A DNA stretch of 18,676 bases. Origin: Fidelibacterota bacterium. GTDB lineage: Bacteria; Fidelibacterota; Marinisomatia; Marinisomatales; UBA2128. Below are positions 1-18,676 of the stretch, piece by piece; the first letter of the stretch is position 1, and each line of letters begins with the position of its first letter. Where the stretch lies: contig JBHHUM010000039.1 in NCBI GenBank assembly GCA_046861645.1, forward strand, positions 1 through 18,676, in the 5' to 3' direction. The translations under genes were made by a program, and so were the position numbers. The notes below the pieces were generated by a model. The model was not told the origin of the DNA and did not search any database. It saw nothing but the letters and a program-made list of their open reading frames with translations.

Positions 1-18
1 CTGTTCCACCACCCGGGC
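1..18 (-). tRNA. 5' end of a probable tRNA-Leu, running off the window edge
   Basis: Minus strand reads GCCCGGG-TG-GTGGAACAG, a typical acceptor 5' strand plus start of a Leu-type D arm. The anticodon is outside the window. Confidence 0.55.
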
Positions 19-28
19 AATCAATCCT

Positions 29-72
29 TCAGGATTAAAATCTGATGTGTCTACCAATTCCACCACTCCGGC
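29..72 (-). pseudogene. Truncated tRNA-Leu-like 5' half
   Basis: Minus strand GCCGGAG-TG-GTGGAATTGGTAGACAC-A-TCAGA-TTTTAAT-CCTGA gives the acceptor 5' strand, a full Leu D arm and an imperfect anticodon arm. No variable arm, T arm (GTTCRA) or acceptor 3' strand follows before the next tRNA-like start at 18. Confidence 0.7.
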
Positions 73-464
73 AAGTGACTGAATTTACAAAGTTGTATTA
101 TGAAGTATTATGTAAAAAGTACAATGATAGAAAAACGACGAAATAAGATTCAAAATAAAGCCCTCAAATAGTGATGTACACAGCAAAAGTAATGTAGAAC
201 TGGATATATAAAACATTAATAATGAGGCAACAAGTTATAACTTCGTAACCATGTCATCTTTCCATCCATAATATCCATCACTATTTTTGAAAATGAAGAA
301 GTCCCGACAGACCGGATAAGTCTGATGATGTAAATAAACCGAGTCAATAGAGTTTTCTGTTTGCCGTCGGTTACTGATGAGTATACACGGGATTTCAGTA
401 TTGTTTTGCATGCAAAGTTGTCACTAATTATAGAGTAATTGTAGAAACTATTTGATATTTGTAA

Positions 465-782
465 GCAACAGACCGTCCATTAGGAAGAAGACTAAATGAA
501 CATACTTTAGATAGATTAAATGGTCGTTGGGATAGGTTTTCATGGTTCGGACTTAAGCCTGTAACTGATAAGGGTAAATTGATAGAATCAACCATATCTC
601 CCTCGGCTAAGCAGCTGATAAGTACAATGGAAGCCTTATTAATTGAGGGATTAGAACCTCCTCAAAATAGACGACGTGGTGATGATTTTAGTGCAGTAGA
701 ATATTTACAAGCTGAGGATACCGATCTAAAGGATAAACAAACAAATGAGTTTATTTTAGAGCTATTGAGGAATAAACAGTAA
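465..782 (+). pseudogene. 5'-truncated GIY-YIG-like nuclease domain (C-terminal part of the HARE-HTH-associated nuclease family)
   Basis: The frame of ORF 579..782 is open back to TAA at 462-464 with no start codon before 579: ATDRPLGRRLNEHTLDRLNGRWDRFSWFGLKPV...EALLIEGLEPPQNRRRGD. RLxEH, RWDRFSWFG and ExxLIExLEPxQN resemble this family as I recall it. Confidence 0.65.
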
Positions 783-930
783 TAAATTTCCTGATTATCG
801 GGGATCACAGTCGGTGTTGGTGGTCTTATGTTGTGTTATATCGAAAATGTCTGAACCGTGATTTTCTTGATTAACTTGATAATACTGATTTTCTAATCAT
901 GTTAATCTTGACAATCCTACAAATCATGGT

Positions 931-1614
931 TCAGACCATGGCCATCCGCTCTTCCCCGTCAAGTTTCTCATATTTGCTTATCCATCCTCTCACACGACTT
1001 ATACCGTACGCCTCTTCCCAGGCGGAAACGATAGCATCCACCGGAATATCGGCAAAAGTGCCGTGGTATTCAAGGTACTCCATAAACTTCCGGTTATCCG
1101 AATCATAAGCGTGAAAGAGGGAATCTTCCCTCCCATTGAATTCCAGCGGAGCTACGTTGTGCTTTCTGCATAGTTCAACGTTAAAAGCCGGAGTGGCTCT
1201 TACCCATTTGCCTTCAAGATAAAACTCTACATATGCATGATAGACGAAAATATCAGCACCGAGAAATTCGATAAACTGCCGGGTAGCCAGATGATTCCGG
1301 ACATTAGCAAACCCAACTCGAGTTGGAATTTCGGCTGCCCGACCGACAGCACAGAGAAGTGACGCTTTACCAATACAGAATGCACGTCCACTATTCAGCA
1401 CATGACTGGCTCGATAGTGTTCCGGGAGATGGAACTGCAAGTACGGATTATACCTGATTCCATCACGAACAGCGTAGTAGAGACTGACAGCTTTCTCGAC
1501 TGGATTATCACTGACATCCTCTAAAATAGTGTTGGTATAGTTAATTATCTCACTGCTATCGCTGTCAATGATGGAAGTTGGTGAAAGGTATTTTCTGTCA
1601 ATATCAATTGTCAT
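931..1614 (-). CDS. Transglutaminase-like superfamily protein
   Basis: 227 aa with LYYAVRDGIRY, catalytic Cys in AFCIGKASLL, His in YHAYVEFY and a WVRATPAF motif. Confidence 0.88.
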   Translation of the reverse strand: MTIDIDRKYLSPTSIIDSDSSEIINYTNTILEDVSDNPVEKAVSLYYAVRDGIRYNPYLQFHLPEHYRASHVLNSGRAFCIGKASLLCAVGRAAEIPTRVGFANVRNHLATRQFIEFLGADIFVYHAYVEFYLEGKWVRATPAFNVELCRKHNVAPLEFNGREDSLFHAYDSDNRKFMEYLEYHGTFADIPVDAIVSAWEEAYGISRVRGWISKYEKLDGEERMAMV

Positions 1615-1700
1615 CTAATTATCTCGTAAGCAAATTTACAGGACTCGATCTGGTAGAATGTAGAATTCAAGTCAACTTGACGCAATAGTGAAAGTAAATT

Positions 1701-1728
1701 TATCGTAACTAACGCTTGAGTTACGATA
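1701..1728. promoter_or_regulatory. Perfect 10-bp inverted repeat, candidate operator in divergent promoter
   Basis: TATCGTAACT-N8-AGTTACGATA between divergent genes, overlapping a possible TTGAGT(1716)-N18-TATATT(1740) promoter for the gap pair. Confidence 0.45.
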
Positions 1729-1776
1729 GTACGATATTGTATATTGTCTTAGTATTCAGTAAGGAATATAATAAAT

Positions 1777-2796
1777 ATGTCAAATCCCATCAGCATCGGA
1801 CTATTCGGATTCGGCCGCATTGGTCGCAATATATTTCGTCTGGGTTACAACGATCCTCGATACGAATTTACCGCCATAAGTGACCTCGGGGGTCCTGAAT
1901 CCCTTCATTATCTCTTGATGCGAGACTCAGTATTTGGCCCCATAGATCATGATATTCATTTGGAGGGGAATTACCTTTGTTACAATGACCATAAAACCAG
2001 ACTGATCCCAGGTGGAAAACCTGGAACAGTCACTTGGGACGCTTTTGATATCGATTTAGTCATTGATGCAACTGGAGCCTACCGTCATAAGGAAGATCTC
2101 GATAAGCACATCGAAGCCGGAGCCAAACGCTTGATCGTATCTGTTCCGCCATTGGATCAGATTGATCGTATCGTGATACCTGGGATTAATGAAAATTCAA
2201 TTCAACTAGAGGATTACATTATTTCTACAACTTCCTCCACAACGCAAGTACTGGCTCTGATGTTGAAAATTCTAGATGAAGATTTTGGTGTCCAAAGAGG
2301 TATGATGACATCAATACATGCTTATACATCAGATCAACCCCTTGCCGATGCAGTACGTTCTGATTTGCGACGTAGCCGTTCCGCTGTAGAAAACATTATT
2401 CCTAATGAAACATGGGCGCCAGATTACGTCTCCCAAATCATGCCGGAGTTTGAAGACAAAATTTCTGGCATCGCCTTTAACGTTCCCGTACCGGATGGTT
2501 CTTGTGTTGATCTCACTACTGAACTAAGACAAATACCTTCTGTTGAGGAGGCAAATGCGTGTGTCAGCGCTGCTGCAAATAACCGCTATCAGCACTTGAT
2601 TGGGTATACTGAGGACCCCATTGTTTCCAGTGATGTCATTGGTCGGGAAGAAACAATGATTTTCGATGCCAAAGCAACCATGATCGCTTCAGGTAAAATG
2701 TTAAAGACACTTTGCTGGTATGATAATGGATGGGGTTTTGCTAAAAGAATCTTGGAGATGGCCGACCACTACCGGGAACTGGAGATTAGATCATGA
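1777..2796 (+). CDS. GAPDH-like protein lacking the catalytic cysteine
   Basis: Rossmann GFGRIGR, IDATG, IHAYTSDQ and WYDNGWGF are present. The active-site segment reads ISTTSSTTQV instead of ISNASCTTNC. AAGGA RBS upstream. Confidence 0.9.
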   Translation: MSNPISIGLFGFGRIGRNIFRLGYNDPRYEFTAISDLGGPESLHYLLMRDSVFGPIDHDIHLEGNYLCYNDHKTRLIPGGKPGTVTWDAFDIDLVIDATGAYRHKEDLDKHIEAGAKRLIVSVPPLDQIDRIVIPGINENSIQLEDYIISTTSSTTQVLALMLKILDEDFGVQRGMMTSIHAYTSDQPLADAVRSDLRRSRSAVENIIPNETWAPDYVSQIMPEFEDKISGIAFNVPVPDGSCVDLTTELRQIPSVEEANACVSAAANNRYQHLIGYTEDPIVSSDVIGREETMIFDAKATMIASGKMLKTLCWYDNGWGFAKRILEMADHYRELEIRS

Positions 2797-3794
2797 ATAT
2801 CGCTATTAACGGTTTCGGTAGAATCGGACGAAGTGTTTTCAGAATTCTCAATCTAAATAAAGACTACCGTATCGTTGCTATTAATGATCTTACCCCCTCT
2901 GATGCCCTTACTTACCTGCTCAAGTACGATACTGTCATGGGGCGTCTTGAAGGAAAAGCAGAGCTTGAAGGTGATATTCTTCGCACTGAAAATCACACTG
3001 TGAAAATGCTTTCCGAAAGTAAACCATCTGAATTACCATGGACAGCGATGGGTATAGACATTGTCATTGAGGCTACCGGTGTGTTTCGTACCAGAGAGAA
3101 ACTTTCTCCTCACCTTGAAGCAGGAGCAAAGAGAGTTATCTTAACTGTTCCAGCTAAGGATGAGATCGATTATACAGTAGTTATAGGTGTCAATGATAAA
3201 GGGTTAACACCCCAGGATCGCATCATTTCAAATGCCAGTTGTACTACCAACTGCCTGGCTCCTATGGCTAAAGTACTGAACGATTCCTTTGGAATAGATT
3301 ATGGAGTAATCAATACTATTCATGCTTATACCAATGATCAACGTCTTGCTGATGTACCTCATACTGATTGGCGACGGAGTCGCGCTGCTGCTGAAAATGT
3401 CATACCTACAACTACGGGTGCTGCCCGTGCAGTAGGTAAAGTTTTACCTGAATTAGATGGCAAATTGGATGGAATAGCCATGCGAGTTCCTGTACCAGAT
3501 GGTTCAGTAGTTGACTTTGTTGTCCGTCTGGAACAAGATGTTACAACAAAGCAGGTTAATGAAGCCGTCAAAGAGGCCTCGAATTCTATTCAACTCGAGC
3601 GTATTTTAGAATTTTCCACTCTACCCGTTGTCTCCACTGATATAATAGGAAACCCACACTCTTCAATATTTGACGCTCCCTTTACTAAAGTAATACAGGG
3701 AAATCTGGTTAAAACCCTAAACTGGTATGATAATGAATGGGGATATTCCAACCGTGTCGTAGACCTTATTGGAATCCTGGCTGATATGGATTAA
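2793..3794 (+). CDS. gap: Type I glyceraldehyde-3-phosphate dehydrogenase
   Basis: GFGRIGR, SNASCTTNCLAP, IHAYTNDQ, PTTTGAA, RVPVPDGS and WYDNEWGYS motifs. ATGA overlap with the upstream gene. Confidence 0.97.
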   Translation: MNIAINGFGRIGRSVFRILNLNKDYRIVAINDLTPSDALTYLLKYDTVMGRLEGKAELEGDILRTENHTVKMLSESKPSELPWTAMGIDIVIEATGVFRTREKLSPHLEAGAKRVILTVPAKDEIDYTVVIGVNDKGLTPQDRIISNASCTTNCLAPMAKVLNDSFGIDYGVINTIHAYTNDQRLADVPHTDWRRSRAAAENVIPTTTGAARAVGKVLPELDGKLDGIAMRVPVPDGSVVDFVVRLEQDVTTKQVNEAVKEASNSIQLERILEFSTLPVVSTDIIGNPHSSIFDAPFTKVIQGNLVKTLNWYDNEWGYSNRVVDLIGILADMD

Positions 3795-4049
3795 CTCCTT
3801 GTTCTCTTAATTTTCCTGTAAAATCTCATTATAGATGGAATTGCGATATTTTTATAAGTATTTATAATTGATAATATAATCGAATAGCTGATTAAAAAAT
3901 CAATCTACAGTTGAGACATAGACCGGCTTACCCAACAGTTCTCCCTCAAGTTGGATGGGGACAGTAAACCAGAGTATCCTGTTATAGCTAACCACTTCCT
4001 TAACTTATTAAGGTTCAAAATATTGACTATAGAATTTAGGAAAGATTTG

Positions 4050-4122
4050 AGGCGTGGACCGGATTCGAACCGGTGCATCGCGGTTTTGCAGACCGCTCCC
4101 TTAGCCACTTGGGTACCACGCC
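4050..4122 (-). tRNA. tRNA-Cys(GCA)
   Basis: GGCGTGG...GCGGT-CTGCAAA-ACCGC...CCGGTTCGAATCCGG-TCCACGCC-T forms a complete cloverleaf. CCA is not encoded. Confidence 0.97.
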
Positions 4123-4132
4123 TAATGATCTG

Positions 4133-4161
4133 AATTTAACTGTTTTTTCATCCCTATTCAA
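4133..4161 (-). promoter_or_regulatory. Sigma70-like promoter of tRNA-Cys
   Basis: Minus strand TTGAAT-N17-TAAATT, 10 nt before the tRNA. Confidence 0.55.
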
Positions 4162-4182
4162 ATTGGAATCTGACTATTATTG

Positions 4183-4211
4183 TTGACCTCCATTATTAAG
4201 TACTCTAACTT
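4183..4211 (+). promoter_or_regulatory. Sigma70-like promoter of the TlpA-like gene
   Basis: TTGACC-N17-TAACTT, 20 nt upstream of ATG 4232. Confidence 0.5.
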
Positions 4212-4231
4212 CAAATAAAACTGGGACCTCA

Positions 4232-4759
4232 ATGAGCAGTATTAGGACTTTATTACTAATCGTAACATTAGTTTGGGCACAAGATGTTTCACCTGACGAA
4301 CGGGGTTATATCGTTAGAATTGGAGACAGTGTACCAGATTTCGAGTTCTATCATGTTAATGGAAAGTTAGCCAGACTTTCAGATTATTTGGGTACGCCTG
4401 TTATGCTCCAGTTTACGGCTTCATGGTGTTCAGTCTGTCGGGAAGAGATGCCACATATTGAAAAGGAAATCTGGCGCCGTTTCAAGGATCAAGGTCTCAT
4501 AGTAATTGGTGTTGATCGTGATGAACCTCTGGAAATCGTAAAAGATTTTGCTAAAGAAATGAACATCACTTATCCTTTGGTATTAGATCCTGGAGCTGAA
4601 ATATTTGGTCTATTTGCCAGTAAAGAGAGTGGTGTAACCAGGAATGTTTTGATTGATCGTCACGGAAAAATAGTCTTTCTAACCCGATTATTTGAGGAAG
4701 AGGAATTCCATTCGCTGGTCGAGAAGATAGGGGAGTTGTTTTTGCCATCAAACCAATGA
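4232..4759 (+). CDS. TlpA/ResA-family thiol-disulfide oxidoreductase (exported)
   Basis: Signal-like N-terminus, IGDSVPDF, FTASWCSVCREEMP (CxxC) and VLIDRHGKI; thioredoxin fold. Confidence 0.92.
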   Translation: MSSIRTLLLIVTLVWAQDVSPDERGYIVRIGDSVPDFEFYHVNGKLARLSDYLGTPVMLQFTASWCSVCREEMPHIEKEIWRRFKDQGLIVIGVDRDEPLEIVKDFAKEMNITYPLVLDPGAEIFGLFASKESGVTRNVLIDRHGKIVFLTRLFEEEEFHSLVEKIGELFLPSNQ

Positions 4760-4815
4760 TAGTATTCAAAATCTAAAATAGTAATATCTCATGCTTTTTA
4801 TCTTCTTTCTCAACC

Positions 4816-4844
4816 TTGCATTCTTAACACAATGACCGTAAACT
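4816..4844 (+). promoter_or_regulatory. Sigma70-like promoter giving a probably leaderless mRNA
   Basis: TTGCAT-N17-TAAACT, then only 7 nt (TTTCCCA) to ATG 4852. No Shine-Dalgarno sequence. Confidence 0.55.
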
Positions 4845-4851
4845 TTTCCCA

Positions 4852-6129
4852 ATGAAAAATACAAATATAGCCCTGATAATAACCTTTCTACTATTGACCA
4901 GTACAGCTGCTAGCTGCAGTAGTGAAAGTTCTGGAGCACCTAAAAAGAGTGCAGGTGAAAATACTTCAGAAACAGTTTCAGATAAATCGAACTTAAGTGG
5001 AAAGGCTACCCTCATTGTCACCGGAAATGTACATGGTCAACTCGACCCCTGTGGCTGAAAACGCAATCCTTCTGGCGGTCTGTCGAGAAAAGCATATTAT
5101 GTAACTTCATTAAAAGAGAGTGGCTTGAATCCTCTTATCATGGATGCCGGAGATCTCTTCTTTGCCAAAACTACTGTAACCGGAATCGCCGGTGAAAAGG
5201 CTATACTTCAGGCTAAAACCATCGTCGATGGTTTTAACATAATTGGTTGCGATGCTATCAATATTGGAGCTAAAGATTTTGCCCAGGGACTCGATTTCCT
5301 GCAGGAATTGGAGACAATGTCATCATTCCCTTTCCTATCAGCAAATATTGTTGAAGAATCAACCAGTGAACTGGTCTTTAAAGAATACGAAATAGTGGAA
5401 AGAGAAGGATTCCGCTTTGGAATAGTCGGATTAGTTGGGAGTCTATCCAACATTACTCGAGGATCTTTAACGACTCTCAACTTCATCCAACGAGGTAAAG
5501 AAGTATTAGAAGATCTTGAAGAAAATTCTGATTATCAGATAGTACTTTTTAATGGTACTGTAGAGCAGGCAAATACGATTAAGGATTCCTTAACTAAAGC
5601 AGAGTTTATTTTTATCAGCGGTGATACTCGGAATCCGACCAGATCAAGTGGAAAGGTTGAGTCAGGGACTTTAATGAAGAAACTTGGCAAGCAGGGTAAA
5701 TCTCTTGGTGTAGTAACAATTGATATAAAAAAAGTTGGCGAACCACTACGGGATCTAACCAGTCTTTCCAACCGGAAGAAATTTCTAACTCGACAACTTA
5801 ATCGTTATAATAAAAAAGATCCTAAAAAGACTCTCGAAGAAATATATGCCCAAGACGAGCGTATGCTCGATCGCATTTCTACCATGAAGACGGAGCTGGA
5901 AAACATAACAGAAGAATTATTAGTAGAAGGAAACACCGTTCGCTTTGATTTTGTTCCTATGAGTAAAAACATCGGTGATAATATGTTGCTGCTCAGTATG
6001 GTTAACGAAACACTAGCCCAATGTGATGCTTTGGGACCTGATAATACTTCCTCGAACCAAAGGAATTCCACGAAAAAATCTGGACGCTCTCCTAAAAAAA
6101 CTGAATCTCAAACTAAACCGGGGAAGTGA
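4852..6129 (+). CDS. UshA/5'-nucleotidase-like selenoprotein (CxU), predicted lipoprotein, 425 aa, Sec at codon 69
   Basis: ORFs 4852..5058 and 5125..6129 share a frame and are separated only by TGA 5056-5058. Read-through gives ...GNVHGQLDPCG-U-KRNPSGGLSRKAYYVTSLKESGLNPLIMDAGD..., joining metallophosphoesterase motifs (xxHG, GGxxR, DAGD). A SECIS follows the TGA. Lipobox TAASC. Confidence 0.88.
5056..5089 (+). promoter_or_regulatory. Bacterial SECIS element
   Basis: TGA AAA CGC AAT CCT TCT GGC GGT CTG TCG AGA A folds into hairpin TTCTGGC/GGTCT/GTC(G)AGAA. GGTCTG lies at +22..+27 counting the T of TGA as +1, the same sequence and position as in the E. coli fdhF SECIS. Confidence 0.8.
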
Positions 6130-6608
6130 AACCCACTCCATCAGTCCAGGCCGTTATTCTTACTGGGCTATCATTGATATTTGCTCTTGGATATAATATT
6201 GTCCGTTCAGATAGAATCCCACTTTTCTACGAAAAACTAGAATCATACAGCATATCAAAAGCTGATTCATTGTTAGCTGAGTCAACTATTCTGATATCTC
6301 CTGAGCCGATTGACCTCGATTTAGCTAAGAACTATTATGATCGAAAAATTATGTTCATCGATGCCAGGGATGAAGAAGATTACACTAATGGGCATATCAA
6401 AGGAGCCGTGTTGGCTCCTGCCATTCTCGGTGAATTATGGGATATTTCTCCTCCCGAATTTCCTATTGTTGTTTATTGCAGTGGTGGGCATTGTGAATTG
6501 AGTTGGGACGTTGCCAATGAATTGACTGAAGAGTGGAATTATGAAAAAGTTTTTGTTTTTTTAGGTGGTTGGGATGAATGGCAGAGCGCCGGTTATCCTA
6601 CAGAATAG
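6126..6608 (+). CDS. Membrane-anchored rhodanese-like domain protein
   Basis: N-terminal TM helix, FIDAR..Y..GHIKGA, active-site loop VYCSGGHC and FLGGWDEW. GTG start overlaps the upstream TGA (GTGA). Confidence 0.9.
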   Translation: MKPTPSVQAVILTGLSLIFALGYNIVRSDRIPLFYEKLESYSISKADSLLAESTILISPEPIDLDLAKNYYDRKIMFIDARDEEDYTNGHIKGAVLAPAILGELWDISPPEFPIVVYCSGGHCELSWDVANELTEEWNYEKVFVFLGGWDEWQSAGYPTE

Positions 6609-6609
6609 A

Positions 6610-7053
6610 ATGTCAATTTTGAATAATAAATGGGTGATATTATTATTTCGTTTGTTTCTGGGAGTATTACTGTTTTATACTGGTTATCATAAAATCAGTG
6701 AATCTCCAGAGGAATTTGCTCAGGTAATCAGGCTTTATGAGATTGGCTTCCTAGCCCCTTTTTCCAATTTAATAGCATTAGTTTTTCCTTGGTTGGAGTT
6801 ATTTGTAGGGTTTTGTTTAATATTTGGAATTTTTTTAGATGGCGCCCTCCTGCTTACTTTTGGCTTGATGGGCGTTTTCTTTGTTGTAGTCTTTCAAGCT
6901 GTACTAAGGGGAATTACCGGAGACTGTGGTTGTGGCATTTTTACTGAGGAACATCTTGGGTGGTGGAAAGTGCTGCAAAACTCTCTTTATTTTATTATGT
7001 CGTACCATATTTGGAATACCGAGAATCATCTATTGAGAGCTTATCCCAAATAA
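6610..7053 (+). CDS. MauE/DoxX-family redox-associated membrane protein
   Basis: Four TM helices, RLFLG, LVFPWLELFVG and RGITGDCGCG. Start placed at ATG 6610, 1 nt after the rhodanese stop, rather than 6565. Confidence 0.88.
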   Translation: MSILNNKWVILLFRLFLGVLLFYTGYHKISESPEEFAQVIRLYEIGFLAPFSNLIALVFPWLELFVGFCLIFGIFLDGALLLTFGLMGVFFVVVFQAVLRGITGDCGCGIFTEEHLGWWKVLQNSLYFIMSYHIWNTENHLLRAYPK

Positions 7054-7055
7054 TT

Positions 7056-7084
7056 TTGCCAGAGCCTGATTGTAGTTGTAAATT
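7056..7084 (+). promoter_or_regulatory. Promoter of the tRNA-Gly/tRNA-Ala pair
   Basis: TTGCCA-N17-TAAATT followed by a GC-rich discriminator CGGCTCGC. Confidence 0.6.
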
Positions 7085-7113
7085 CGGCTCGCTTTTTAAC
7101 CATATATGTATTT

Positions 7114-7186
7114 GCGAGAGTAGCTCAGCTGGTAGAGCCCCACGTTGCCAACGTGGCTGTCGCGGGTTCGAGTCCCGTCTCTCGCT
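7114..7186 (+). tRNA. tRNA-Gly(GCC)
   Basis: GCGAGAG...CCACG-TTGCCAA-CGTGG...GCGGGTTCGAGTCCCGT-CTCTCGC-T. Confidence 0.97.
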
Positions 7187-7206
7187 CGAATGTTTGTTAT
7201 GTTCCT

Positions 7207-7279
<73 letters not shown>

Positions 7280-7283
7280 CTAA

Positions 7284-7517
7284 ATGTTCTCAACATATAT
7301 TCTATAGAGCAAAATTACTCATAGATTTTATATTGGTCACACCAGTGATATCACTAAGAGACTTAAACAGCACAATGCGGGTTATTCCAAAGCCACTAAA
7401 AGGGAACGTCCCTGGAATCTGGTCTATACCAAAACGTTCAAGACAAGGAGCGAAGCCAGACAGCATGAATTTCGACTCAAAAACTTTATAAATAAGACAA
7501 ATTGTTCGATGTATTAG
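7284..7517 (+). pseudogene. Small GIY-YIG nuclease (UPF0213/YhbQ-like) interrupted by TAG at codon 8
   Basis: Manual translation: MFSTYIL*SKITHRFYIGHTSDITKRLKQHNAGYSKATKRERPWNLVYTKTFKTRSEARQHEFRLKNF... It shows the YIL, YIG, RLxQHN, PWxLVY and A..E..LK motifs. TAG at 7305-7307. Not in the ORF track. Confidence 0.85.
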
Positions 7518-7549
7518 ACTATCTTTTACGCTTGCATTTATTCTTTGAT

Positions 7550-8392
7550 TTATTCCTCGATTGATATCTTCAGTGATTTTTTCTTACTGACTATTGTATC
7601 AATCACACCTCCAAAACCGATGAGGTAAACCAGCAGTTTCACAAACCACCCGACTACCGGTATTATTCCGATTAATCCGAGAAGTACCAAACCAACTAAC
7701 CCTTCGAGGAGGATCGGTCGACTTGCACTATCGAGAGCAATAAACACTCTTTTTCCGATGAGACGACCTACAGCCAAATACCCAAACAGAATCGCCAAGA
7801 TGATAATCAGGCAGAATAAAGGTATCAAAACGATACCTATTACAGATAGAACAAGGGAAATGATGACAGGGACAATCAAAACAAATCCCAATATTCCAAA
7901 AAAGATAGTTCGGAGGGGTTGTACCTCTACGGAATCAGAAACTGCTGTTATCTGTTTCGGCAAAAAGAGAATTAGGACCATTGCCAAGGCGATAAACCCG
8001 ATAAAAGAGAATAATCTGAAAGCCCAATAGAATTCTCCCCAATTATCCCATTTCAAAGGGATAAAGGTAGATACTAAATCCTGGACTTCTACAAGATCTC
8101 CATCAATGATCCCTCCCTCCTCAATATGGATATGCCCTCCGACTGACACAGCATTACCATCGATATAACCGTTTGAGAATACTGTGATAGAACCCCCGAC
8201 AGCCACTGCATCTCCATCCACATCACCGAAAACTTCGATATCCCCGCCGATAGCTACGACATCCTCCACTTCCCTCCCTCCTTCGATAACCACATCTCCC
8301 CCAACACGAACGATAGTTCCTTTTTCCGCCAATAAGGGAAATGAAGATGCCATGATTATTAAAAAAGCAAGAAACTGAATTCTCTTCATCAT
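7550..8392 (-). CDS. Bactofilin-like (polymer-forming cytoskeletal) beta-helix membrane protein
   Basis: Signal peptide, repeated (V/I)xGD(A/V)V(A/S)(V/I)GG units and a multi-TM C-terminus. AAGGAG RBS. Confidence 0.75.
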   Translation of the reverse strand: MMKRIQFLAFLIIMASSFPLLAEKGTIVRVGGDVVIEGGREVEDVVAIGGDIEVFGDVDGDAVAVGGSITVFSNGYIDGNAVSVGGHIHIEEGGIIDGDLVEVQDLVSTFIPLKWDNWGEFYWAFRLFSFIGFIALAMVLILFLPKQITAVSDSVEVQPLRTIFFGILGFVLIVPVIISLVLSVIGIVLIPLFCLIIILAILFGYLAVGRLIGKRVFIALDSASRPILLEGLVGLVLLGLIGIIPVVGWFVKLLVYLIGFGGVIDTIVSKKKSLKISIEE

Positions 8393-8453
8393 AACTCCTT
8401 TTTTGAATTCAGGTATAACTACTTATTCAACTTTTTCCAAGATTCAACCAACC

Positions 8454-9767
8454 TTAACTGGTTTTAGTACCAACGCTGACATTATCAAAAAGTATCGCTG
8501 GAAAAGTTCCCCCGGAGGAAGGATGTACAGTATCCTCAATTTCTAAAACAGTATTAAACAGGTCGTATATATTTCCTGTGACCATAGCATCCTTAATGTG
8601 GCCTGTTATTTCCCCGTTTTCTACATACAATCCCGGAGAAAGACCCACAGAGAAATCACCATTAGGGATATTACCACTGTGAGCTCCCATTGCCTCAGGG
8701 ATAATAATTCCCTTATCGATAGAGTTGATTATCTCGCCTATCGATTTATTGCCGGGTTCAATGAACAGGTGCTGAAGGGATGGAGTTGGCTTAAGTGATA
8801 CTGTCTCTCCGCCCCACATCGCACTTTTAAAACCGTGCCCTGTAGGTTGTGTATTCATCTTTTTGGCGTAAAAGAGGTCGTAATAAAAATTCCTCAAGAC
8901 ACCATTTCTTACCACATCTAATCGCCGGCAAGGGATTCCCTCATCATCAAATGACCGTGCACCCGGAAAGTTGTCGTTTAATGGATCATCGAAAATCGTA
9001 ACTCTTTCATCAAAAATGGTATCACCAATCTTGTCTATGAGCGGGGACTCTTTCACGTAAATGTTCTTTCCATTGGAAGCAAACCGCAACCTCCACATTA
9101 AAACATACATTGTCTCGGGGAGAAAGAGCGTCTTCACTTTTCCGCTTTTTAGACTTACTTCTTTTTCAGAGCTGTTGTAGGTGTGCAGAATATAGTCCAG
9201 GAAATCATTGGGAACGGCTTCAAACTTTTTGCGCCTGAACATGCGGTAGATAGAGGCATAAGAACCAGGATACAGAACAAACGGAGTTAAGGAGTAATGA
9301 GAAGACTTGTTAGCAATATCGGTACCTTGATTGTTAATAATTCTGATATCGTCAGTAGTAATCTCAGAATTGACATTTATCTGTCCCTTCGTCTTGCCGG
9401 TAAGATATTCACATATTCTACTGCATTCTTCATATAACTTCTCGTTCATAAGTGATTCTATGGCAGAATCATAGGAATCCACTTCAGCTATATCCTTTGT
9501 GTAGGGGAAATCCAACTGCCCTTCTACGCCTCCTTTCAATGAATCAACCGCATTCCGGATAAGTCCCTCCCTGTCATGCAGATTTTTTGTGTAGGCAAAA
9601 CCGGTTTTACCATCCTTTATAATCCTGAGACTTAATCCAGACTGGATTGAACTATCAATATCCTTTAGTTTTGCATTTTCGAAAGTGACAGAATCACTTT
9701 TTTGTTTTATAGCATAAATTTCCACCTGATCAGCAGACATGCTTGCCAGTTCTAATAATTTTTCCAT
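8454..9767 (-). CDS. pmbA: PmbA/TldE family protein
   Basis: SLRIIKDGKTGFAYT, SFDDEGIP and NIPNGDFS motifs, no HExxxH. Start placed at ATG 9767 (GGAGGAG RBS, TGATG overlap with tldD). Confidence 0.88.
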   Translation of the reverse strand: MEKLLELASMSADQVEIYAIKQKSDSVTFENAKLKDIDSSIQSGLSLRIIKDGKTGFAYTKNLHDREGLIRNAVDSLKGGVEGQLDFPYTKDIAEVDSYDSAIESLMNEKLYEECSRICEYLTGKTKGQINVNSEITTDDIRIINNQGTDIANKSSHYSLTPFVLYPGSYASIYRMFRRKKFEAVPNDFLDYILHTYNSSEKEVSLKSGKVKTLFLPETMYVLMWRLRFASNGKNIYVKESPLIDKIGDTIFDERVTIFDDPLNDNFPGARSFDDEGIPCRRLDVVRNGVLRNFYYDLFYAKKMNTQPTGHGFKSAMWGGETVSLKPTPSLQHLFIEPGNKSIGEIINSIDKGIIIPEAMGAHSGNIPNGDFSVGLSPGLYVENGEITGHIKDAMVTGNIYDLFNTVLEIEDTVHPSSGGTFPAILFDNVSVGTKTS

Positions 9768-11140
9768 CAGGCTCCTCCGCACACGACATTTTTGATAAGG
9801 ATATGCGGCGCCCCATGACACGACCTGATGTTAGACTGATGTCCTTTACCACAGCCACCCATACCAGGACGGCACAGCTCCAAATCATTCCCGATGGCAA
9901 CAATGTTTTTCAGAGTCTGATACAGATTCCCGGAGATATTGACATCTCTGATCATCTCTACAATTTTACCATTTTTGACGACATATCCATACTGTGTTCC
10001 AAAAGTGAAGTTCTCACCGCTGGTCTCGCCTCCTTTGGCATCCAGTAGATAAAGCCCATCGTCCAGTTTTTGAAAAAGGTCGTCAATTGAACTGTCGCCC
10101 GGTTCGATGAAAATTGTTCCCATTCTGATTATGGGTGCGAAGCGGTAGTCCTCTGCCACACAGTGACCGGATATCGGTTCATCAAATGCTGCTGCAGTCC
10201 TCCTGGAATGAAGTCTGCCTGTCAGGACACCTCCTTTCATTAACTGGGTTGGTCTTGCTTCAACTCCTTCATCATCATACTTGTAGTGCCCTAACTGGTC
10301 CGGGAGAGTGGGATCATCTTTAATGTTGAGAATTTCGTTACCGAGTTTTGCACCAAGTTTCATCTTTTCTCTCATTGAAGGAGAATCTTCAATCAGATCA
10401 GCCTCTGAAAAGTGACCGAAAGCTTCGTGGGTGAACACTCCTGCAAGGTCCGGATTAATGATTACATCATATGCTCCTGCTTTTACCGGCTTTGCTTTCA
10501 GGAGTTGTATTGCAATGGACGTCTTTTTCTCAAACTGCTCTTCGACATTCCTTAATATAGCGAATCCGCTGCTCCCACCGATACCAACCCTGACATTTTG
10601 AAGGATGTTACCATCCTTAGCTGTTATAGTGCCTCCCACCCGGGGCGTGATCAATTCTTCTCTAATCTCACTTCCTTCCGAACTGACGAAATACTTTTCA
10701 CGAATCAGTTCACTGTACCCAATGTTAGTCGTAGCAATCTTATCTTTATGTAAAGGGATGCTATTGTATTTTCTTGTTAACTCCAGTTTTTCTTCCATAG
10801 AAATACTTCTGGGATCTTCATTCAGCTGGGGTATAAAAGTGTCTTTAACACTTCCCGTTTTGGCAAATCTTGTGGGTACTTTTTTGTTCTTCGAAATCAG
10901 GAGAGCATTTTCTACAACAGTGCGTATTGCATTTTCCGTATCGGTTTCCTTTGTATAGGCAATCGAGGATAAACCACCGTTCCTCAGTACCCTTATTACG
11001 TATCCATCAGTAGAATTGGAACCGATACTGGTGAGTTCATTTCCGTTAAAAACTATAGCAGTTTCCTTTTTGATCTCGTAGCGGATATCGGCGTAATCGG
11101 CATCAATTCTGGCAAGGATTGTTTTTAGTTTCTCAAACAT
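9767..11140 (-). CDS. tldD: TldD family metalloprotease
   Basis: HEAFGH zinc motif, YDDEGV, PIIRMGT and C-terminal GGCGKGHQ Cys ligand. Confidence 0.93.
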   Translation of the reverse strand: MFEKLKTILARIDADYADIRYEIKKETAIVFNGNELTSIGSNSTDGYVIRVLRNGGLSSIAYTKETDTENAIRTVVENALLISKNKKVPTRFAKTGSVKDTFIPQLNEDPRSISMEEKLELTRKYNSIPLHKDKIATTNIGYSELIREKYFVSSEGSEIREELITPRVGGTITAKDGNILQNVRVGIGGSSGFAILRNVEEQFEKKTSIAIQLLKAKPVKAGAYDVIINPDLAGVFTHEAFGHFSEADLIEDSPSMREKMKLGAKLGNEILNIKDDPTLPDQLGHYKYDDEGVEARPTQLMKGGVLTGRLHSRRTAAAFDEPISGHCVAEDYRFAPIIRMGTIFIEPGDSSIDDLFQKLDDGLYLLDAKGGETSGENFTFGTQYGYVVKNGKIVEMIRDVNISGNLYQTLKNIVAIGNDLELCRPGMGGCGKGHQSNIRSCHGAPHILIKNVVCGGA

Positions 11141-11141
11141 T

Positions 11142-11264
11142 TTACAGGTTTAGTGAATCTTCATTCTTCAACTTAACATTTCCACTTAGTTGTGAAAACC
11201 TGAAAGTAGTCCATATAGCGGTAAGTTTGCGCATAGGGTCTTGATGACGATAGGGTTCAGACAT
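11142..11264 (-). CDS. Putative 40-aa peptide directly upstream of tldD
   Basis: MSEPYRHQDPMRKLTAIWTTFRFSQLSGNVKLKNEDSLNL*. AAGGGGG lies 11 nt upstream. Its TAA is 1 nt before the tldD ATG, which has no SD of its own. Confidence 0.4.
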   Translation of the reverse strand: MSEPYRHQDPMRKLTAIWTTFRFSQLSGNVKLKNEDSLNL

Positions 11265-11708
11265 ATACTAATATGCCCCCTTAGTAAGGATAAATTACAA
11301 TAAAATCATTCAATTTGGGACACAATCCATAAACTTTTGCGGATTAGGTAAAAACATCTAAATAATGGAATGTACCAAGTTCTGGCAAAAACTCAGTTAC
11401 GTCCCAAATTCTGCTATTGATCTGTTCAAAGCCTAATCTACCGGTATAGTCAAATAGTCTGTTGAACTTCGACCTTCCTGTGCTGGAGCTACATCAGACA
11501 AGCGGGACAGGCACTGAGGACTATAAACCCCGGGGTCTAGTTGAAAACGAACTTTCCCGCTAGACTCTATTTGCCAAAGATGCTACAAGAATCTGGTTGT
11601 AGATGCTGTTGGAATGGCAATCCCGAGGAGACCCTATGGGTCATAAGAGTTCTTTCCTTCTCGATCTTCGGAGTAGCATCAGGTGTAGGTTGAGCGTATT
11701 TTGTAATC

Positions 11709-12128
11709 TTATGTTGCTTTTGTTCCTCTTGCGTAAACCAAGGCTATAACAATTCCTCCTATCGTCTTTTCAACGACCTGAAATAATACATTAACTAAAG
11801 TTCCTGTAAGAGGTAAAGTGTAATGCGCATACAAAACAAATTGTACTGGAAGATGCATAATTAAACCTATAATAATTCCGAATTTAAGACCCTCCTCAAC
11901 AGGTTTCCCGCCTTTATATCCAATAGGAAAGATGTAAGCCATTAATAAGATTCCAATATAATAACCTAGAACATCCCATAACCATTGGATTTGATCTTCA
12001 GCTCTTATTATGTCTGAAAATTCCTTGAGATACCAATCTTTCATTATGCCTTGGTACCACAAAACATCAATCACAGTCATTGCGATAGCTCCATAGATAA
12101 ACGCCAATAACAGTTTCTTAACATTCAT
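11709..12128 (-). CDS. Small 4-TM membrane protein (DUF1761/DUF2177-like)
   Basis: 139 aa with hydrophobic helices and a GLKFGIIIG motif. AAGGAGG RBS. Confidence 0.75.
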   Translation of the reverse strand: MNVKKLLLAFIYGAIAMTVIDVLWYQGIMKDWYLKEFSDIIRAEDQIQWLWDVLGYYIGILLMAYIFPIGYKGGKPVEEGLKFGIIIGLIMHLPVQFVLYAHYTLPLTGTLVNVLFQVVEKTIGGIVIALVYARGTKAT

Positions 12129-12272
12129 GTTTTACCTCCTTTATTCTCTAATAAATCTGATAACAAGAAATATCCAACCAGAAATGGTATCGTGATTGGT
12201 CAGTTACCATCAGATTTATTGTCATTATGTTTTGAGTTAAATGTATCATGGATCAGGACCAAATGTTTATAT

Positions 12273-13223
12273 TTAAGGATAGATCTCCACATCGTTTTTT
12301 ATTGGATTTAAAGTCATCAAGTAAGCATAGATAGCTCCCAGATCTTCTTCCGTCATTTCCGCGTAAGAAGTCCAACCCATAGTAGTATTTCTATTATTAT
12401 AGACTGGCGTATGTTTCGCATCAGGAGAGGCATATTCCTTAAACCGTTCAATAAAATCATCTCGATCCCAATCACCAATTCCAGTGTCCTCATCAGGTGT
12501 GATATTAGAGGATCTAACTAAAAAACCACCTGGCATGGGGTGATCCGATCCACCAGCATACTCCATTCCTTCGATTAAATTGGGTCCTTTCATGGGAGTA
12601 TGACATCCAATGCATCCTGCAATGGTAATCAAATATTCTCCATACGCCACTTCGTCGGTTGGATCTGGTTTAGTTTGTGGTACGTATTCTTTTGGTATGG
12701 TTCGGATAATGTATTTCAGGGGGAACTTGAGTTTACCAGTTTTAACGTCACTCGGGATTGATTTTAGCGTTCGCAAATAAGCTATGATCGAATAGACATC
12801 TTCTTCAGTCATCCTGGCGTAACTGAGATAAGGCATCATTGGGAAAATAGCATCTCCATCTTTATTGACGCCACTGACAATTGCGCGAAATATCTCACCA
12901 TCGGTCCAGTTTCCAAGGCCATAGGGAGTGATATTGGAAAGGCACACGGTACCGGGAACCCCTAACTCCTCCCCGAAACATTCACCGCCCTTTCCTTCAG
13001 TACCTTCTACGATTGGTATAGCATAATTATCCCACTTATGCTCGGAATGACAATCGAAACAACCGGTGACAGCCCTGGCTAAATACTCACCTCGGGCAAC
13101 TCGTCCCTCTGTGATTTCAATCTTAATGTCAGGAGCGGGACCAACTTTTATTGGTATCAAAATGGTGCAGCCACAAATAAGGATTAATACAAAATATATT
13201 ACAACTTTGAATGGATTATTCAT
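12273..13223 (-). CDS. Diheme c-type cytochrome, probably membrane-anchored or lipoprotein
   Basis: Two CxxCH motifs (CFDCH, CIGCH) in repeated GEYL...NITP...G.G.W units. Start placed at ATG 13223, 6 nt after AAGGAG. Confidence 0.9.
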   Translation of the reverse strand: MNNPFKVVIYFVLILICGCTILIPIKVGPAPDIKIEITEGRVARGEYLARAVTGCFDCHSEHKWDNYAIPIVEGTEGKGGECFGEELGVPGTVCLSNITPYGLGNWTDGEIFRAIVSGVNKDGDAIFPMMPYLSYARMTEEDVYSIIAYLRTLKSIPSDVKTGKLKFPLKYIIRTIPKEYVPQTKPDPTDEVAYGEYLITIAGCIGCHTPMKGPNLIEGMEYAGGSDHPMPGGFLVRSSNITPDEDTGIGDWDRDDFIERFKEYASPDAKHTPVYNNRNTTMGWTSYAEMTEEDLGAIYAYLMTLNPIKNDVEIYP

Positions 13224-13471
13224 GACCATCTCCTTTTCTTTGTTGAAGAATTCAACCATTCAATACTCAAATACACGCTGTCATGTACCTCTACCTGATA
13301 AAGACTATTATCCAACATTTGGGTCTTTAATCCCACTATCTCTGCTCATATAAAATATGAGCGCTGGTCATATGAATATCAAGAACTTCCATCGGGATGT
13401 CCTCAGAACATCATTACACGTTCTTGACTTTGCGATAGAAATCACTGTTTTGTATTTATATACCTGATTTT

Positions 13472-14467
13472 CTATAATCCTTCAAAATATTCAAAGGCAT
13501 CAATAATATCCAAATACACTCCATCAAATCCAGCATCAAGAATCTTCTTCAAATATGAGCTATCATTACCAAAAATAATATCCTGCCACTCCGTATCCCA
13601 ATATCTGACTTTGTAATTTCCTTCCCAGTCAGGATTTTCCTTCTCTAACCATGATGGCGGATTGTTTTTCCAATCAGAATTCCAGTAATATCGGTAATCT
13701 TCTACTTCACCAATACTCATGTAAGCGATCATCAGGCGCGAGCCGCCATTTAATTTGGTCTTTAGAGAGGTTATATCATCAAAAGTCAGTTCATCAGTAC
13801 CCTCAAAGAAAAGGTCCATTATTACCAGATCATAGTTAGTGTTCTGTACAGCATTCAAGAATTCTACTTTTGTGCTATATGTACCGGGATTAAGCAGGTA
13901 GAGAAAATTCATGGCTTCAGCTAATGATGGTATATTGTCTGCGTTAACATCATGAGGTGTTGCCGGATAGTCTGGAATATTATCCAATTCCCTGTGATCA
14001 GCCGCAAAAGATATATAACCTTTGGCAGCATTCTGTGCATAGGAATCATCCATATAGGAAGGTGTCCAACAGTAGTCGGTTACTAATACCTCAACACCAT
14101 TGTTTTCCGCTATATCCATAAAGGCAAGCATGTAGTCTTTATCAACCGCAGAGGTGGGTTCATTATCATCATCATAACCATAAAATAAATCCTCACGTCC
14201 CACACCATCAATTGCATTAATGTAATCTGCGGCTGGGGTTCCTGTCTCTTCGCCATCTTCCGTTAATATGTCATGACCATTTTGTGGTATAATGATAAAA
14301 GAAGCATTGATTCCTTTCGAATAGCTGCTAATTCCTTGGACAAAATCACGCATATCCTGTTTGAAATCTCTATCAGGAATGGTATCAGAATCGTCGTCTT
14401 CACAGAAGGTTAATAGCATAACTGATAATACTGAGATGAATATAAGTTTAATTAAATTATTATTCAT
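13472..14467 (-). CDS. GH114/TM1410-like endo-alpha-1,4-polygalactosaminidase family lipoprotein
   Basis: IIPQNG, DGVGREDLFYG, AYMSIGEVEDYRYYW and GFDGVYLDIIDAF motifs. Signal peptide ending in Cys (LLTFC). Confidence 0.85.
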   Translation of the reverse strand: MNNNLIKLIFISVLSVMLLTFCEDDDSDTIPDRDFKQDMRDFVQGISSYSKGINASFIIIPQNGHDILTEDGEETGTPAADYINAIDGVGREDLFYGYDDDNEPTSAVDKDYMLAFMDIAENNGVEVLVTDYCWTPSYMDDSYAQNAAKGYISFAADHRELDNIPDYPATPHDVNADNIPSLAEAMNFLYLLNPGTYSTKVEFLNAVQNTNYDLVIMDLFFEGTDELTFDDITSLKTKLNGGSRLMIAYMSIGEVEDYRYYWNSDWKNNPPSWLEKENPDWEGNYKVRYWDTEWQDIIFGNDSSYLKKILDAGFDGVYLDIIDAFEYFEGL

Positions 14468-14631
14468 GACTGCTCCCTTTTCCTAATTTGAACGAATTTA
14501 CGACTTGTTATCTGTATTCAAAATAAAAAGGGATTATTCAAAACACCGTCCATATACTCCCAAAGATTCGGGATACGATGAATAAATCTTCCTAATCGGA
14601 ATAATATCAATCATCAGAACAGTTTTTCTAT

Positions 14632-15900
14632 CTAATCTTCTAACATGCCAGCAACTACATCCAAACTCCCATCTGTGATTGTGGGCTCAATATCCATTAC
14701 CTTGGCAATAAGTTCGTAAATGTGAATATTCTGAAAAGATGGGATGCTCAACCCATCCTTGAAATCCGGGCCATAGGCTAGGAAAATTCCATGCATGGAC
14801 AGCAAGAGAGGATCATACCCATGCGTACCTCCTGTATAGGCATCAGGATGGCTATCGTAGTAACTCCTGGTACTGATAGACCAACCTTCATCGGCAATTC
14901 CAATAATTGGTGTAATACGCCGGTGATTACGGTAGTGCAGGTGTTCCGGGGTTTCCTCCTTCTTATATACCGAGAACCGTGTGTGAGCATTAACAAGTGA
15001 ATTGTAGATCGAGTCTTCCAGCCCTTCATTAGGAATGATTGCCGCAACGGGAGACCACCCCACCATAGTCACATCCGATAGATTGATGTAGTCACCAAGA
15101 AAGATTATACTATCTCTATCTATTTCAGTCATTCCATGATCAGCAGTGATAATGATATTCACTTTATTCAATAAATCCCGAGTAGTTAAACCTGCTATCA
15201 ACCTCCCCAGATCAACATCCAATCCTTGTATTACAGTATCCATTTCCACTGATTCAGGACCCAAGATATGCCCCCAGTAGTTGGCATCATTTAGATAGGC
15301 TGTCATGAAGACAGGGCGTTCACTATCCGGAAGGTCCAGCCATGCCAATAGTTGATCTATTATCGTTTCATTAGAGGTTGAACCATCATAAGTATACCAA
15401 TAAGTAGGTCTCTCACCATTAATTTCAGCTTCAGAACCAGGCCAGAAATACGTAGCGGTAACCTTTCCCTGTTTCTCAGCAGTTACCCATATAGGCTCTC
15501 CCTCATACCAACGACTCTCGGGGACTGATTCGCTTCCTTCACCTATGGTATACCATGCATCAAAAACCTCGTCGTACATCCTATTCGAGACAATCCCGTG
15601 ATTCTCTGGGTATAATCCAGTAACGATAGATAAGTGGTTGGGAAAAGTAAATGTTGGAAAAACCGGTATGAGTGACTCGGCTTTTACTCCACCCTCGATG
15701 AGAAAATCGAAATTCGGAGTATACGTCCTTTCAGTATAATCCCATCTGAAACCATCCATTGAGATCAGGATAACAGGGTTTATCTTAGCTTGATCATCCT
15801 CTTCGTCTGCTTGGAAAAGATCACATGTCCAGATCAGTGTACAGATGATGATTAAAATAAAGATTATTGCAAAATGTTGATACTTAAGATTCCCTTTCAT
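14632..15900 (-). CDS. Ectonucleotide pyrophosphatase/phosphodiesterase (alkaline phosphatase superfamily)
   Basis: LISMDGFRWDY, catalytic Thr in PTFTFPNH, TADHGM and GTHGYD. Signal peptide with Cys. Confidence 0.93.
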   Translation of the reverse strand: MKGNLKYQHFAIIFILIIICTLIWTCDLFQADEEDDQAKINPVILISMDGFRWDYTERTYTPNFDFLIEGGVKAESLIPVFPTFTFPNHLSIVTGLYPENHGIVSNRMYDEVFDAWYTIGEGSESVPESRWYEGEPIWVTAEKQGKVTATYFWPGSEAEINGERPTYWYTYDGSTSNETIIDQLLAWLDLPDSERPVFMTAYLNDANYWGHILGPESVEMDTVIQGLDVDLGRLIAGLTTRDLLNKVNIIITADHGMTEIDRDSIIFLGDYINLSDVTMVGWSPVAAIIPNEGLEDSIYNSLVNAHTRFSVYKKEETPEHLHYRNHRRITPIIGIADEGWSISTRSYYDSHPDAYTGGTHGYDPLLLSMHGIFLAYGPDFKDGLSIPSFQNIHIYELIAKVMDIEPTITDGSLDVVAGMLED

Positions 15901-16017
15901 TTCTTATTTACTCTTAGAGTCTGAAAAAAGGTATCTTGACTTTTTAGTTGTACGACATTGCATACTATTGGATTGTTTTGTTCCACCATACTCACTCACC
16001 GTGAATGGACCGGAGAG

Positions 16018-16418: not shown

Positions 16419-16468
16419 AAGACATCTTTCGCTATCAGCGAAAAACTCAGAACTTGGCTGTTCGAGAT

Positions 16469-18675: not shown

Positions 18676-18676
18676 G

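Follow-up and report, generated by a model that had tools for sequence, protein, structure and literature searches.

An UshA-like selenoprotein gene spanning an in-frame TGA in a Fidelibacterota bacterium, with a proposed Cys-Gly-Sec redox centre

Introduction

We describe a gene at positions 4852-6129 on the forward strand of a stretch of DNA of 18,676 nucleotides (nt) from a Fidelibacterota bacterium (GenBank assembly GCA_046861645.1, contig JBHHUM010000039.1, positions 1 to 18,676), which we call the window. Two open reading frames (ORFs) are called here; it is highly probable that they form a single gene for an exported, probably lipid-anchored, UshA-like (PCGU) selenoprotein, in which the TGA at 5056-5058 encodes selenocysteine (Sec, U) and the triplet Cys-Gly-Sec (C-G-U) is the proposed redox centre. 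Comparison with relatives supports both the single gene and the reading of its TGA as Sec; beyond these, we infer export and lipidation, redox chemistry at C-G-U, and a partnership with a neighbouring rhodanese and a MauE/DoxX-family membrane protein.

UshA-like CxU proteins have appeared in selenoprotein lists since at least 2008, with no function attached. In that year a survey of the Global Ocean Sampling data reported "COG0737, UshA-like, CxU", comprising 76 Sec sequences from 20 samples along with 92 homologues that have Cys, as a family that was not an obvious thiol oxidoreductase and to which no function was assigned (PMC2398784); later reviews list an "UshA-like protein, CxU" plus a second family, NF049981 (PMC9312934, PMC13188914). 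As far as these sources go, they agree with an earlier note on this DNA, which had mentioned reports of such selenoproteins with no function established. Like the window protein, the Global Ocean Sampling family is marine, belongs to UshA/COG0737 as a CxU selenoprotein, and has homologues with Sec and with Cys; in its passages on the family, that account is silent on lost metal ligands, on a model of the Sec insertion element and on rhodanese or MauE neighbours (PMC2398784). Our search of published main text, titles and abstracts yielded nothing on the function of UshA-like CxU proteins, on lost ligands or on a rhodanese-MauE context: the papers returned on UshA-like selenoproteins are lists, those on MauE, rhodanese and DoxX are not relevant by title or abstract, and those listed on Marinimicrobia selenoproteins do not, by title or abstract, concern an UshA-like CxU protein. 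The gene is new only as a further member of a selenoprotein family that is already catalogued with no function assigned, and nothing known is overturned by it—its weight would be greater if the relay discussed below proved true.

One gene across an in-frame TGA

The called ORFs lie at 4852..5058 (+; 68 amino acids (aa), start ATG) and 5125..6129 (+; 334 aa, start TTG) and have a common frame. Once TGA is translated as U, 4852-6129 becomes one open frame of 425 residues followed by a terminal TGA, and the TGA at 5056-5058 is its sole internal stop; this bears out the proposal of the earlier note that the two ORFs are one frame broken only at that codon. The context of the codon is ...TLIVTGNVHGQLDPCG-U-KRNPSGGLSRK..., with the local motif DPCG-U-KRNPSGGL. 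The features of the gene are as follows, where SECIS stands for selenocysteine insertion sequence.

4852..6129, forward strand: UshA-like selenoprotein precursor, 425 aa, from ATG 4852 to the terminal stop TGA 6127-6129; based on the NF041198 match, an end-to-end orthologue alignment and the AlphaFold2 (AF2) fold
4852..4917, forward strand: putative signal peptide and lipobox (…TSTAAS-C22), the Cys22 codon being 4915-4917
5050..5058, forward strand: Cys67-Gly68-Sec69 (TGT GGC TGA), the proposed redox centre, Sec codon 5056-5058; C-G-TGA falls in the same column in 37/37 TGA orthologues
5070..5089, forward strand: SECIS-like hairpin, with 5' arm 5070-5076, loop GGUCU 5077-5081 and 3' arm 5082-5089, G5085 being bulged

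The sequence before the lipobox Cys reads MKNTNIALIITFLLLTSTAAS-C22, and Cys occupies that alignment column in 34 of the 39 aligned sequences. This N-terminus is consistent with a lipoprotein signal peptide, the lipobox being judged from the sequence, and together with the single 425-residue frame it would fit the description of the product, in the earlier note, as a 425-aa Sec-containing lipoprotein. The same note stated that the split cuts through the N-terminal metallophosphoesterase motifs. The TGA does fall between the motif I position, GNVHG (aa 58-62), and motif II, DAGD (aa 98-101); what has to be amended is the standing of the motifs, both of which are degenerate. In annotation, callers either split the gene or read Trp at the codon, and the protein is mostly stored truncated in public databases—most entries are C-terminal pieces of ~299-330 aa, much as had been foreseen of standard gene callers. 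Taken together, the sequence comparisons confirm that both called ORFs belong to a single gene, whose product is a selenocysteine-containing and probably membrane-anchored member of the catalogued family.

Evidence that TGA 5056-5058 is a selenocysteine codon

We searched 40 relatives and the genome itself, and a match was present in 40 of the 41 genomes. At the level of the order, each of 30 fetched loci has [D]PCG-TGA at the corresponding position, and 11 further matches comprise seven with TGA, two with Cys (YYDCGC), one paralogue that lacks the motif and one that is interrupted by N. The order-level orthologues examined therefore divide into 37 with TGA and two with Cys at the Sec codon, never a variable residue, with the whole motif absent from the one paralogue; this pattern of U or C among homologues is the one that a true Sec codon had been expected to leave. 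Distant loci from other families and classes (25-36% identity, n=20) have PCG-TGA in 19 cases, the single locus without C-G-TGA by the pattern used being L082. Across a sample of the phylum, which the names on public matches give as Marinimicrobia, 149/201 genomes match at E <= 1e-30; among the matches listed, and counted by eye, 12 are free of internal stops, one has a TAA only, and the remainder have an in-frame TGA. Overall, the TGA sits at one codon across at least 56 loci of 25-68% identity, with the reading frame conserved on either side.

Loci L053 and L054, the Cys forms that read YYDCGC, belong to a genus with ~1 Mb genomes (96-99% complete) in which neither selA nor tRNA-Sec scored above its cut-off in any of four genomes; a fifth genome with a Cys form, G176, has both. 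More distant homologues read ELCGC, APCGC and EPCGC, and L071 and L072 read PCGC and DCGC. A search with one CGC-containing pattern returned four Cys-form loci, from Bacteriovoracaceae, Halobacteriovoraceae, one Marinimicrobia metagenome-assembled genome and one uncultured bacterium.

The genome itself is equipped to decode the codon. In an assembly of 2.5 Mb in 184 contigs (94% complete) we found tRNA-Sec (63.9 bits; called SeC with anticodon tca by ARAGORN), selA (531 bits), selB (395 bits) and selD (390 bits, with one in-frame TGA), all above their cut-offs, which answers in the affirmative the question that the earlier note had put to the genome. Within the window, TGA also serves as an ordinary stop: 5 of the 15 ORFs end in it, the Trp codon is TGG, and the TGA at 5056 is the only internal one. 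The sequencing runs listed as containing the stretch are four DNA runs and no RNA run; their separately assembled contigs are identical across the TGA, all from one possible source sample and hence not independent, and one of them differs from the window by a single C>A at 5851.

Several readings would deny the codon its role: it could genuinely end translation, result from a nonsense mutation or a faulty assembly, or encode Trp or Gly under an altered code, and the locus would then yield two products, a pseudogene or an ordinary protein. Gene callers do split the gene and leave C-terminal pieces in the databases, the hairpin described below is not significant alone, and four public proteins (P0025, P0028, P0039 and P0041) read DPCGW. 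Because that W aligns to the TGA-encoded residue of 37 orthologues, it is probably the caller's own translation of the Sec codon under an alternative code. Retention of the TGA in at least 56 loci within a conserved frame speaks against these readings, as do the Cys, not Trp, of the orthologues that lack it, the ordinary use of TGA and TGG in the window, and the agreement among contigs, within which the read or assembly error feared at the outset was not seen; moreover, the downstream piece alone would have neither signal peptide nor motif I. We regard these readings as extremely improbable and, on the comparative record, as excluded for practical purposes.

A side observation concerns two stretches of this genome, G000:C34:32445-32582 (L020) and G000:C34:25008-25934 (L018). 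The selD product is itself a predicted selenoprotein with SHGSGUACKLGP, and a strong hairpin of -24.9 kcal/mol follows. About 6.5 kb from selD lies a 65-aa near-copy of its 5' end, which shares the TGA and the hairpin and probably arose by partial duplication. No common GGUCU-loop geometry was seen in the selD hairpin, which lends no support to a motif shared within the genome.

The SECIS-like hairpin

GGTCTG occupies 5077-5082, that is +22..+27 when the U of UGA is counted as +1, a sequence and placement that we take to be identical to those of fdhF. RNAfold pairs 5070-5076 with 5082-5089 around the GGUCU loop, and the spacer from UGA measures 11 nt (5059-5069). The loop region is conserved beyond what the protein requires of it: GGCGGTCT, which codes G-G-L with three synonymous positions, is invariant in 37/37 TGA-bearing orthologues, Cys forms code GGL as GGAGGATTG or GGAGGGCTT, and the motif-less paralogue codes it as GGTGGCCTT. 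The helix was counted on an alignment, A1, as seven pairs (columns 21-27 with 33-39). Pairing holds for 80.6% of its cells vs 72.3% in shuffles, a level that 0/500 shuffles reach and that slid registers, at <= 48.8%, do not approach; its covariation score is 0.300 vs 0.134 in shuffles, again with 0/500 reaching it. Pair 24-36, made of two synonymous third positions, covaries through six pair types (GC 14, AU 8, CG 6, UA 3, GU 2, UG 2, with 1 unpaired). In distant loci with GGLAR the stem forms in a neighbouring register with GGUCU still in the loop, giving two registers in the phylum.

In the published description, the upper hairpin of the E. coli fdhF SECIS is 17 nt long and lies 11 nt from UGA; U17 is bulged, and the loop contains G23 and U24 (PMC8659212). 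The window hairpin shares the 11-nt spacer, and G23 and U24 correspond to G5078 and U5079 in its loop. It differs in its stem of 5-7 base pairs, which is built from the codons of x-G-G-L-(S/P/A)-R.

Four points weigh against a SECIS role. As a single sequence the hairpin has a minimum free energy of -7.6 kcal/mol with z = +1.11, and 173/200 shuffles fold equally well or better; an Rfam scan of 4700-6300 returned four chance-level matches only and no SECIS family; there is no counterpart to the bulged U17 known from E. coli, position 17 being the paired C5072 and the bulge lying on the 3' arm; and in one orthologue, L059 (G039:C73), the hairpin is 3 nt nearer UGA, the other 36 sharing the spacing. 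Weak as the hairpin is alone, the comparison supports a SECIS role for it. Of the "fdhF-like SECIS" of the earlier note, the placement of GGTCTG stands, with G23/U24 in a conserved and covarying loop hairpin; the likeness does not extend to the U17 bulge, nor is the lone fold significant.

Orthologue L059 has a one-codon deletion between UGA and hairpin (A1 columns 13-15).

Family, fold and lost metal ligands

Pfam gave nothing significant for the read-through protein, including no 5'-nucleotidase C-terminal domain. The best NCBIfam match is NF041198 (UshA_like_PCGU, "UshA-like (seleno)protein"), at 208.6 bits (E 1.5e-61, model 22-396 of 519); because this score lies below the 275-bit cut-off, the NCBI family model would not name the window protein. 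The same is seen across its clade, in which all 39 aligned members match NF041198 with a best E-value of only 4.7e-69. DPCGU occupies aa 65-69, and C67-G68-U69 is present in 38/39 sequences, as are C67 and G68.

The cut-off is passed by P0072 (401 bits) and P0079 (289 bits, model 24-518), both of which have a C-terminal multihaem Cytochrome_C554; judging from these two members only, a multihaem cytochrome may be the family-defining domain. Having no CxxCH motif and no Pfam match, the window selenoprotein is without such a domain, and by sequence it belongs to a haem-less clade scoring below the NF041198 cut-off. With the catalogued family it shares P-C-G-U right after motif I, a 5'-nucleotidase-like N-terminal fold, and the occurrence of Sec and Cys forms; unlike the members that pass the cut-off, it has no haem domain, and rhodanese and MauE genes adjoin it instead.

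The genome also encodes a second member of the UshA-like superfamily, a 580-aa protein (G000:C59; L067:774-2516, +) that has N-C-L-C-P for P-C-G-U, four CxxCH (Cytochrome_C554) and, at its C-terminus, a LysM domain. Against NF041198 it reaches 256.8 bits, just under the cut-off.

Comparison supports the fold of the window protein as well. An AF2 model built on the 39-sequence alignment has a predicted local distance difference test (pLDDT) score of 87.1 and a predicted template modelling (pTM) score of 0.81; its top Foldseek matches are E. coli UshA and CD73, at E ~1e-20 and a template modelling (TM) score of ~0.55 (1oid_B, E 4.2e-21), and a sequence profile search of the PDB finds 1ush at E 1e-18. 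The model includes a helical hairpin at 303-356 and ends, at 425 aa, in a basic C-terminal stretch of 30 residues that is of low confidence and appears as a disordered tail. E. coli UshA, human CD73 and the Thermus 5'-nucleotidase (1ush, 4h2i, 2z1a) share the N-terminal metallophosphoesterase fold with the window protein, and the LDAGD, GG[LV]xR[KR] and SAN stretches are common to all. Identity is 14-20%, DxH is replaced by N-x-(H/R/N/F/Q), GNHE by G-x-x-(D/E), and C-G-U is inserted. In the alignment TGNVHGQLDP stands against TNDTHAHLEP, and NIGAKDF against ALGNHEF. Counts of metal ligands, which cover the motif I and GNHE positions in the 39 sequences, are as follows.

Motif I Asp position: N 36, S 3, D 0
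Motif I His position: R 17, H 16, N 3, F 2, Q 1
GNHE Asn position: 12 residue types, none of them N
GNHE His position: Y 13, F 11, K 9, N 3, H 2, E 1

Residues that are invariant in the clade alignment are G75, G76, L77, R79, D98, G100, N165 and S256. The comparison supports a 5'-nucleotidase fold that has been kept and metal ligands that have been lost, and the protein is probably no phosphatase or other phosphoesterase; this is the most likely reading because the motif I Asp, the GNHE Asn-His and the nucleotide-binding C-terminal domain are all lost. The label "UshA-like" in the earlier note holds for the fold, as Foldseek and the PDB profile search indicate, and fails at the metal ligands.

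Neighbouring genes and their linkage

Three genes flank the selenoprotein gene, two downstream and one upstream.

6126..6608, forward strand: rhodanese-domain protein with a YC118SGGHC123 loop; Pfam Rhodanese, E 1.6e-14
6565..7053, forward strand: MauE/DoxX-family membrane protein with C121-G-C123; Pfam MauE, E 1.5e-22, and DoxX
4232..4759, forward strand: TlpA/ResA-like periplasmic thiol:disulfide oxidoreductase with WCSVC; Pfam AhpC-TSA and Redoxin; 92 nt upstream of the selenoprotein gene

The GTG start of the rhodanese gene overlaps the stop codon of the selenoprotein gene, and the rhodanese N-terminus is a hydrophobic anchor; among NCBIfam models the rhodanese comes closest to NF041203, a rhodanese-related (seleno)protein (52 bits, below cut-off). 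The MauE/DoxX protein probably starts at ATG 6610, as judged from orthologue N-termini, and its nearest NCBIfam matches include a family for the maturation of a Cu-binding ribosomally synthesized and post-translationally modified peptide (RiPP), at 24.6 bits and below cut-off.

Among the 30 order-level loci, a rhodanese follows the selenoprotein gene in 29 and MauE is present in 27, the misses for MauE being two contig ends and one cut locus. C118 and C123 of the rhodanese are invariant in 27/27, as is C121-G-C123 of MauE. Five of the 20 distant loci have the three genes adjacent in another order, rhodanese-MauE-selenoprotein. From these comparisons we take the rhodanese-MauE linkage to be real, to have outlived one rearrangement and to be limited to certain clades, the selenoprotein family persisting elsewhere without it. 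At four loci found with the CGC pattern, no obvious rhodanese or MauE neighbour was seen in the ORF lists.

The TlpA-like upstream gene (NCBIfam ResA, 89.5 bits, below cut-off) was considered as a conserved partner and rejected, since it adjoins in only 2/30 loci, both of one genus. In six of 14 distant loci (L078, L079, L080, L081, L087 and L092) an FMN_dh-like gene of 342-351 aa lies directly upstream on the same strand, and in three of the 14 an aminopeptidase P gene is upstream, the remaining neighbours being mixed; both are probably lineage synteny and not functional partners. A promoter and terminator scan of 4000-7600 gave counts at the level of shuffles.

A proposed redox role and its rivals

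The loss of ligands, the haem-fused relatives, and the CX4C rhodanese and CGC MauE neighbours together yield a testable idea, namely that the protein carries a periplasmic Cys-Sec redox centre. In the mechanism that we propose, UGA 5056-5058 is read as selenocysteine through SelB, which carries Sec-tRNA(Sec) and would bind the hairpin 11 nt further on. Reactivity would reside in the Cys67-Gly-Sec69 loop directly behind motif I; this loop would pass between a selenol/thiol and a selenenylsulfide, possibly on a sulfur substrate. Its likeliest redox partners in the clade would be the adjoining rhodanese and the MauE/DoxX membrane protein, through exchange of electrons or sulfur; in the haem-fused relatives the multihaem cytochrome would fill this partner role.

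The adjacency of rhodanese and MauE across the order suggests a periplasmic thiol/selenol relay, and a more specific version can be put forward tentatively, with a probability that we hold to be low: the Cys-Gly-Sec loop at the former dimetal site would be the catalytic end of an undescribed relay running from the quinone pool through MauE/DoxX (C-G-C) and the membrane-anchored CX4C rhodanese to the selenoprotein and on to an inorganic or carrier-bound sulfur compound, with a tetrahaem cytochrome replacing rhodanese-MauE in the haem-fused relatives. Relays of the DsbB/DsbA and DsbD types are well known, MauE takes part in the maturation of methylamine dehydrogenase, and a DoxX-rhodanese (SseA) complex occurs in mycobacteria. 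Like these systems, the one proposed here would set a membrane protein with a conserved Cys pair beside soluble or anchored proteins with Cys pairs or Cys-Sec; unlike them, its terminal member would be a dead-phosphatase fold with Sec, and its linkage is limited to certain clades. If true, a phosphatase scaffold would now serve as a chalcogen redox enzyme, and most of the genomes sampled from an abundant marine phylum would encode it.

A number of observations weigh against this proposal, above all against an obligate relay. Fifteen of the 20 distant loci are without rhodanese or MauE within the fetched flanks; in five of five such genomes checked a MauE homologue is found elsewhere, with rhodanese beside it in four of the five. 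Four Cys-form genomes keep the selenoprotein homologue and none of them (0/4) has a MauE match, and five Cys or motif-less loci are without either neighbour. Where C-G-U lies with respect to the former active site is read from the alignment. Finally, an invariant D98, a position 101 occupied by D, E or N, and the conserved N59 and N165 could, with Cys and Sec, still bind one metal.

This last point is the core of a rival that we consider unlikely, in which the protein is a real selenoprotein that has remained a metal-dependent hydrolase. Its single or unusual metal would be bound by D98, D101 and N59 together with Cys67 and Sec69, the latter two standing in for the lost ligands, and would serve in the cleavage of phospho- or sulfo-esters, perhaps in a SoxB-like manner on a carrier-bound thiosulfonate. 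The fold, which is that of dimetal phosphoesterases, is in its favour, as is the conservation of those residues along with N165 and S256; SoxB is, moreover, among the NCBIfam matches (44 bits for the window protein, 86-102 bits for the haem-fused relatives), and the neighbouring rhodanese would be a carrier of Cys-borne sulfur. What it has to explain away is a motif I without Asp and a GNHE without Asn in any sequence, with the respective His kept in only 16/39 and 2/39, and the multihaem cytochrome fusion of relatives, which points to electron transfer over hydrolysis. In a second rival, the selenoprotein would have no catalysis of its own, and its Cys-Gly-Sec would bind or carry a soft ligand (sulfane sulfur, selenium, Hg, Cu or As) in periplasmic trafficking or detoxification. 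The ancestral active site is dead, CxU pairs are good chelators of soft ligands, the rhodanese and DoxX/MauE context and the weak match of the MauE-like protein to the Cu-binding RiPP maturation family would suit such a role, and the source sample is labelled as a hydrothermal vent metagenome. Metal-resistance or transporter genes were not seen beside the gene in the window or in 14 distant loci, however, the haem fusion of relatives fits electron transfer better, and nothing specific speaks for carriage; we judge it decidedly improbable. The redox centre at C-G-U is the reading that we prefer to both.

Other features of the window

Upstream of the selenoprotein gene, two tandem glyceraldehyde-3-phosphate dehydrogenase genes lie at 1777-2796 and 2793-3794 (+) with a 4-nt overlap, and a tRNA-Cys(GCA) gene at 4049-4122 (-) precedes the redoxin gene. 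Just past the MauE gene, tRNA-Gly(GCC) at 7114-7187 (+) and tRNA-Ala(GGC) at 7207-7280 (+) close off the gene cluster. Two ORFs listed at 6960-7283 and 7153-7491 run into these tRNAs and are probably spurious. A PmbA/TldD metallopeptidase pair occupies 8454-9821 and 9767-11140 (-).

A 328-aa dihaem cytochrome c is encoded at 12273-13259 (-), 6 kb from the selenoprotein gene, and in one distant genome, G194 (L090:3017-4006), a similarly sized protein that matches both of its Pfam families is encoded just downstream of the selenoprotein orthologue. A type I phosphodiesterase/nucleotide pyrophosphatase is encoded at 14632-15900 (-); for nucleotide hydrolysis nearby it is a conventional candidate.

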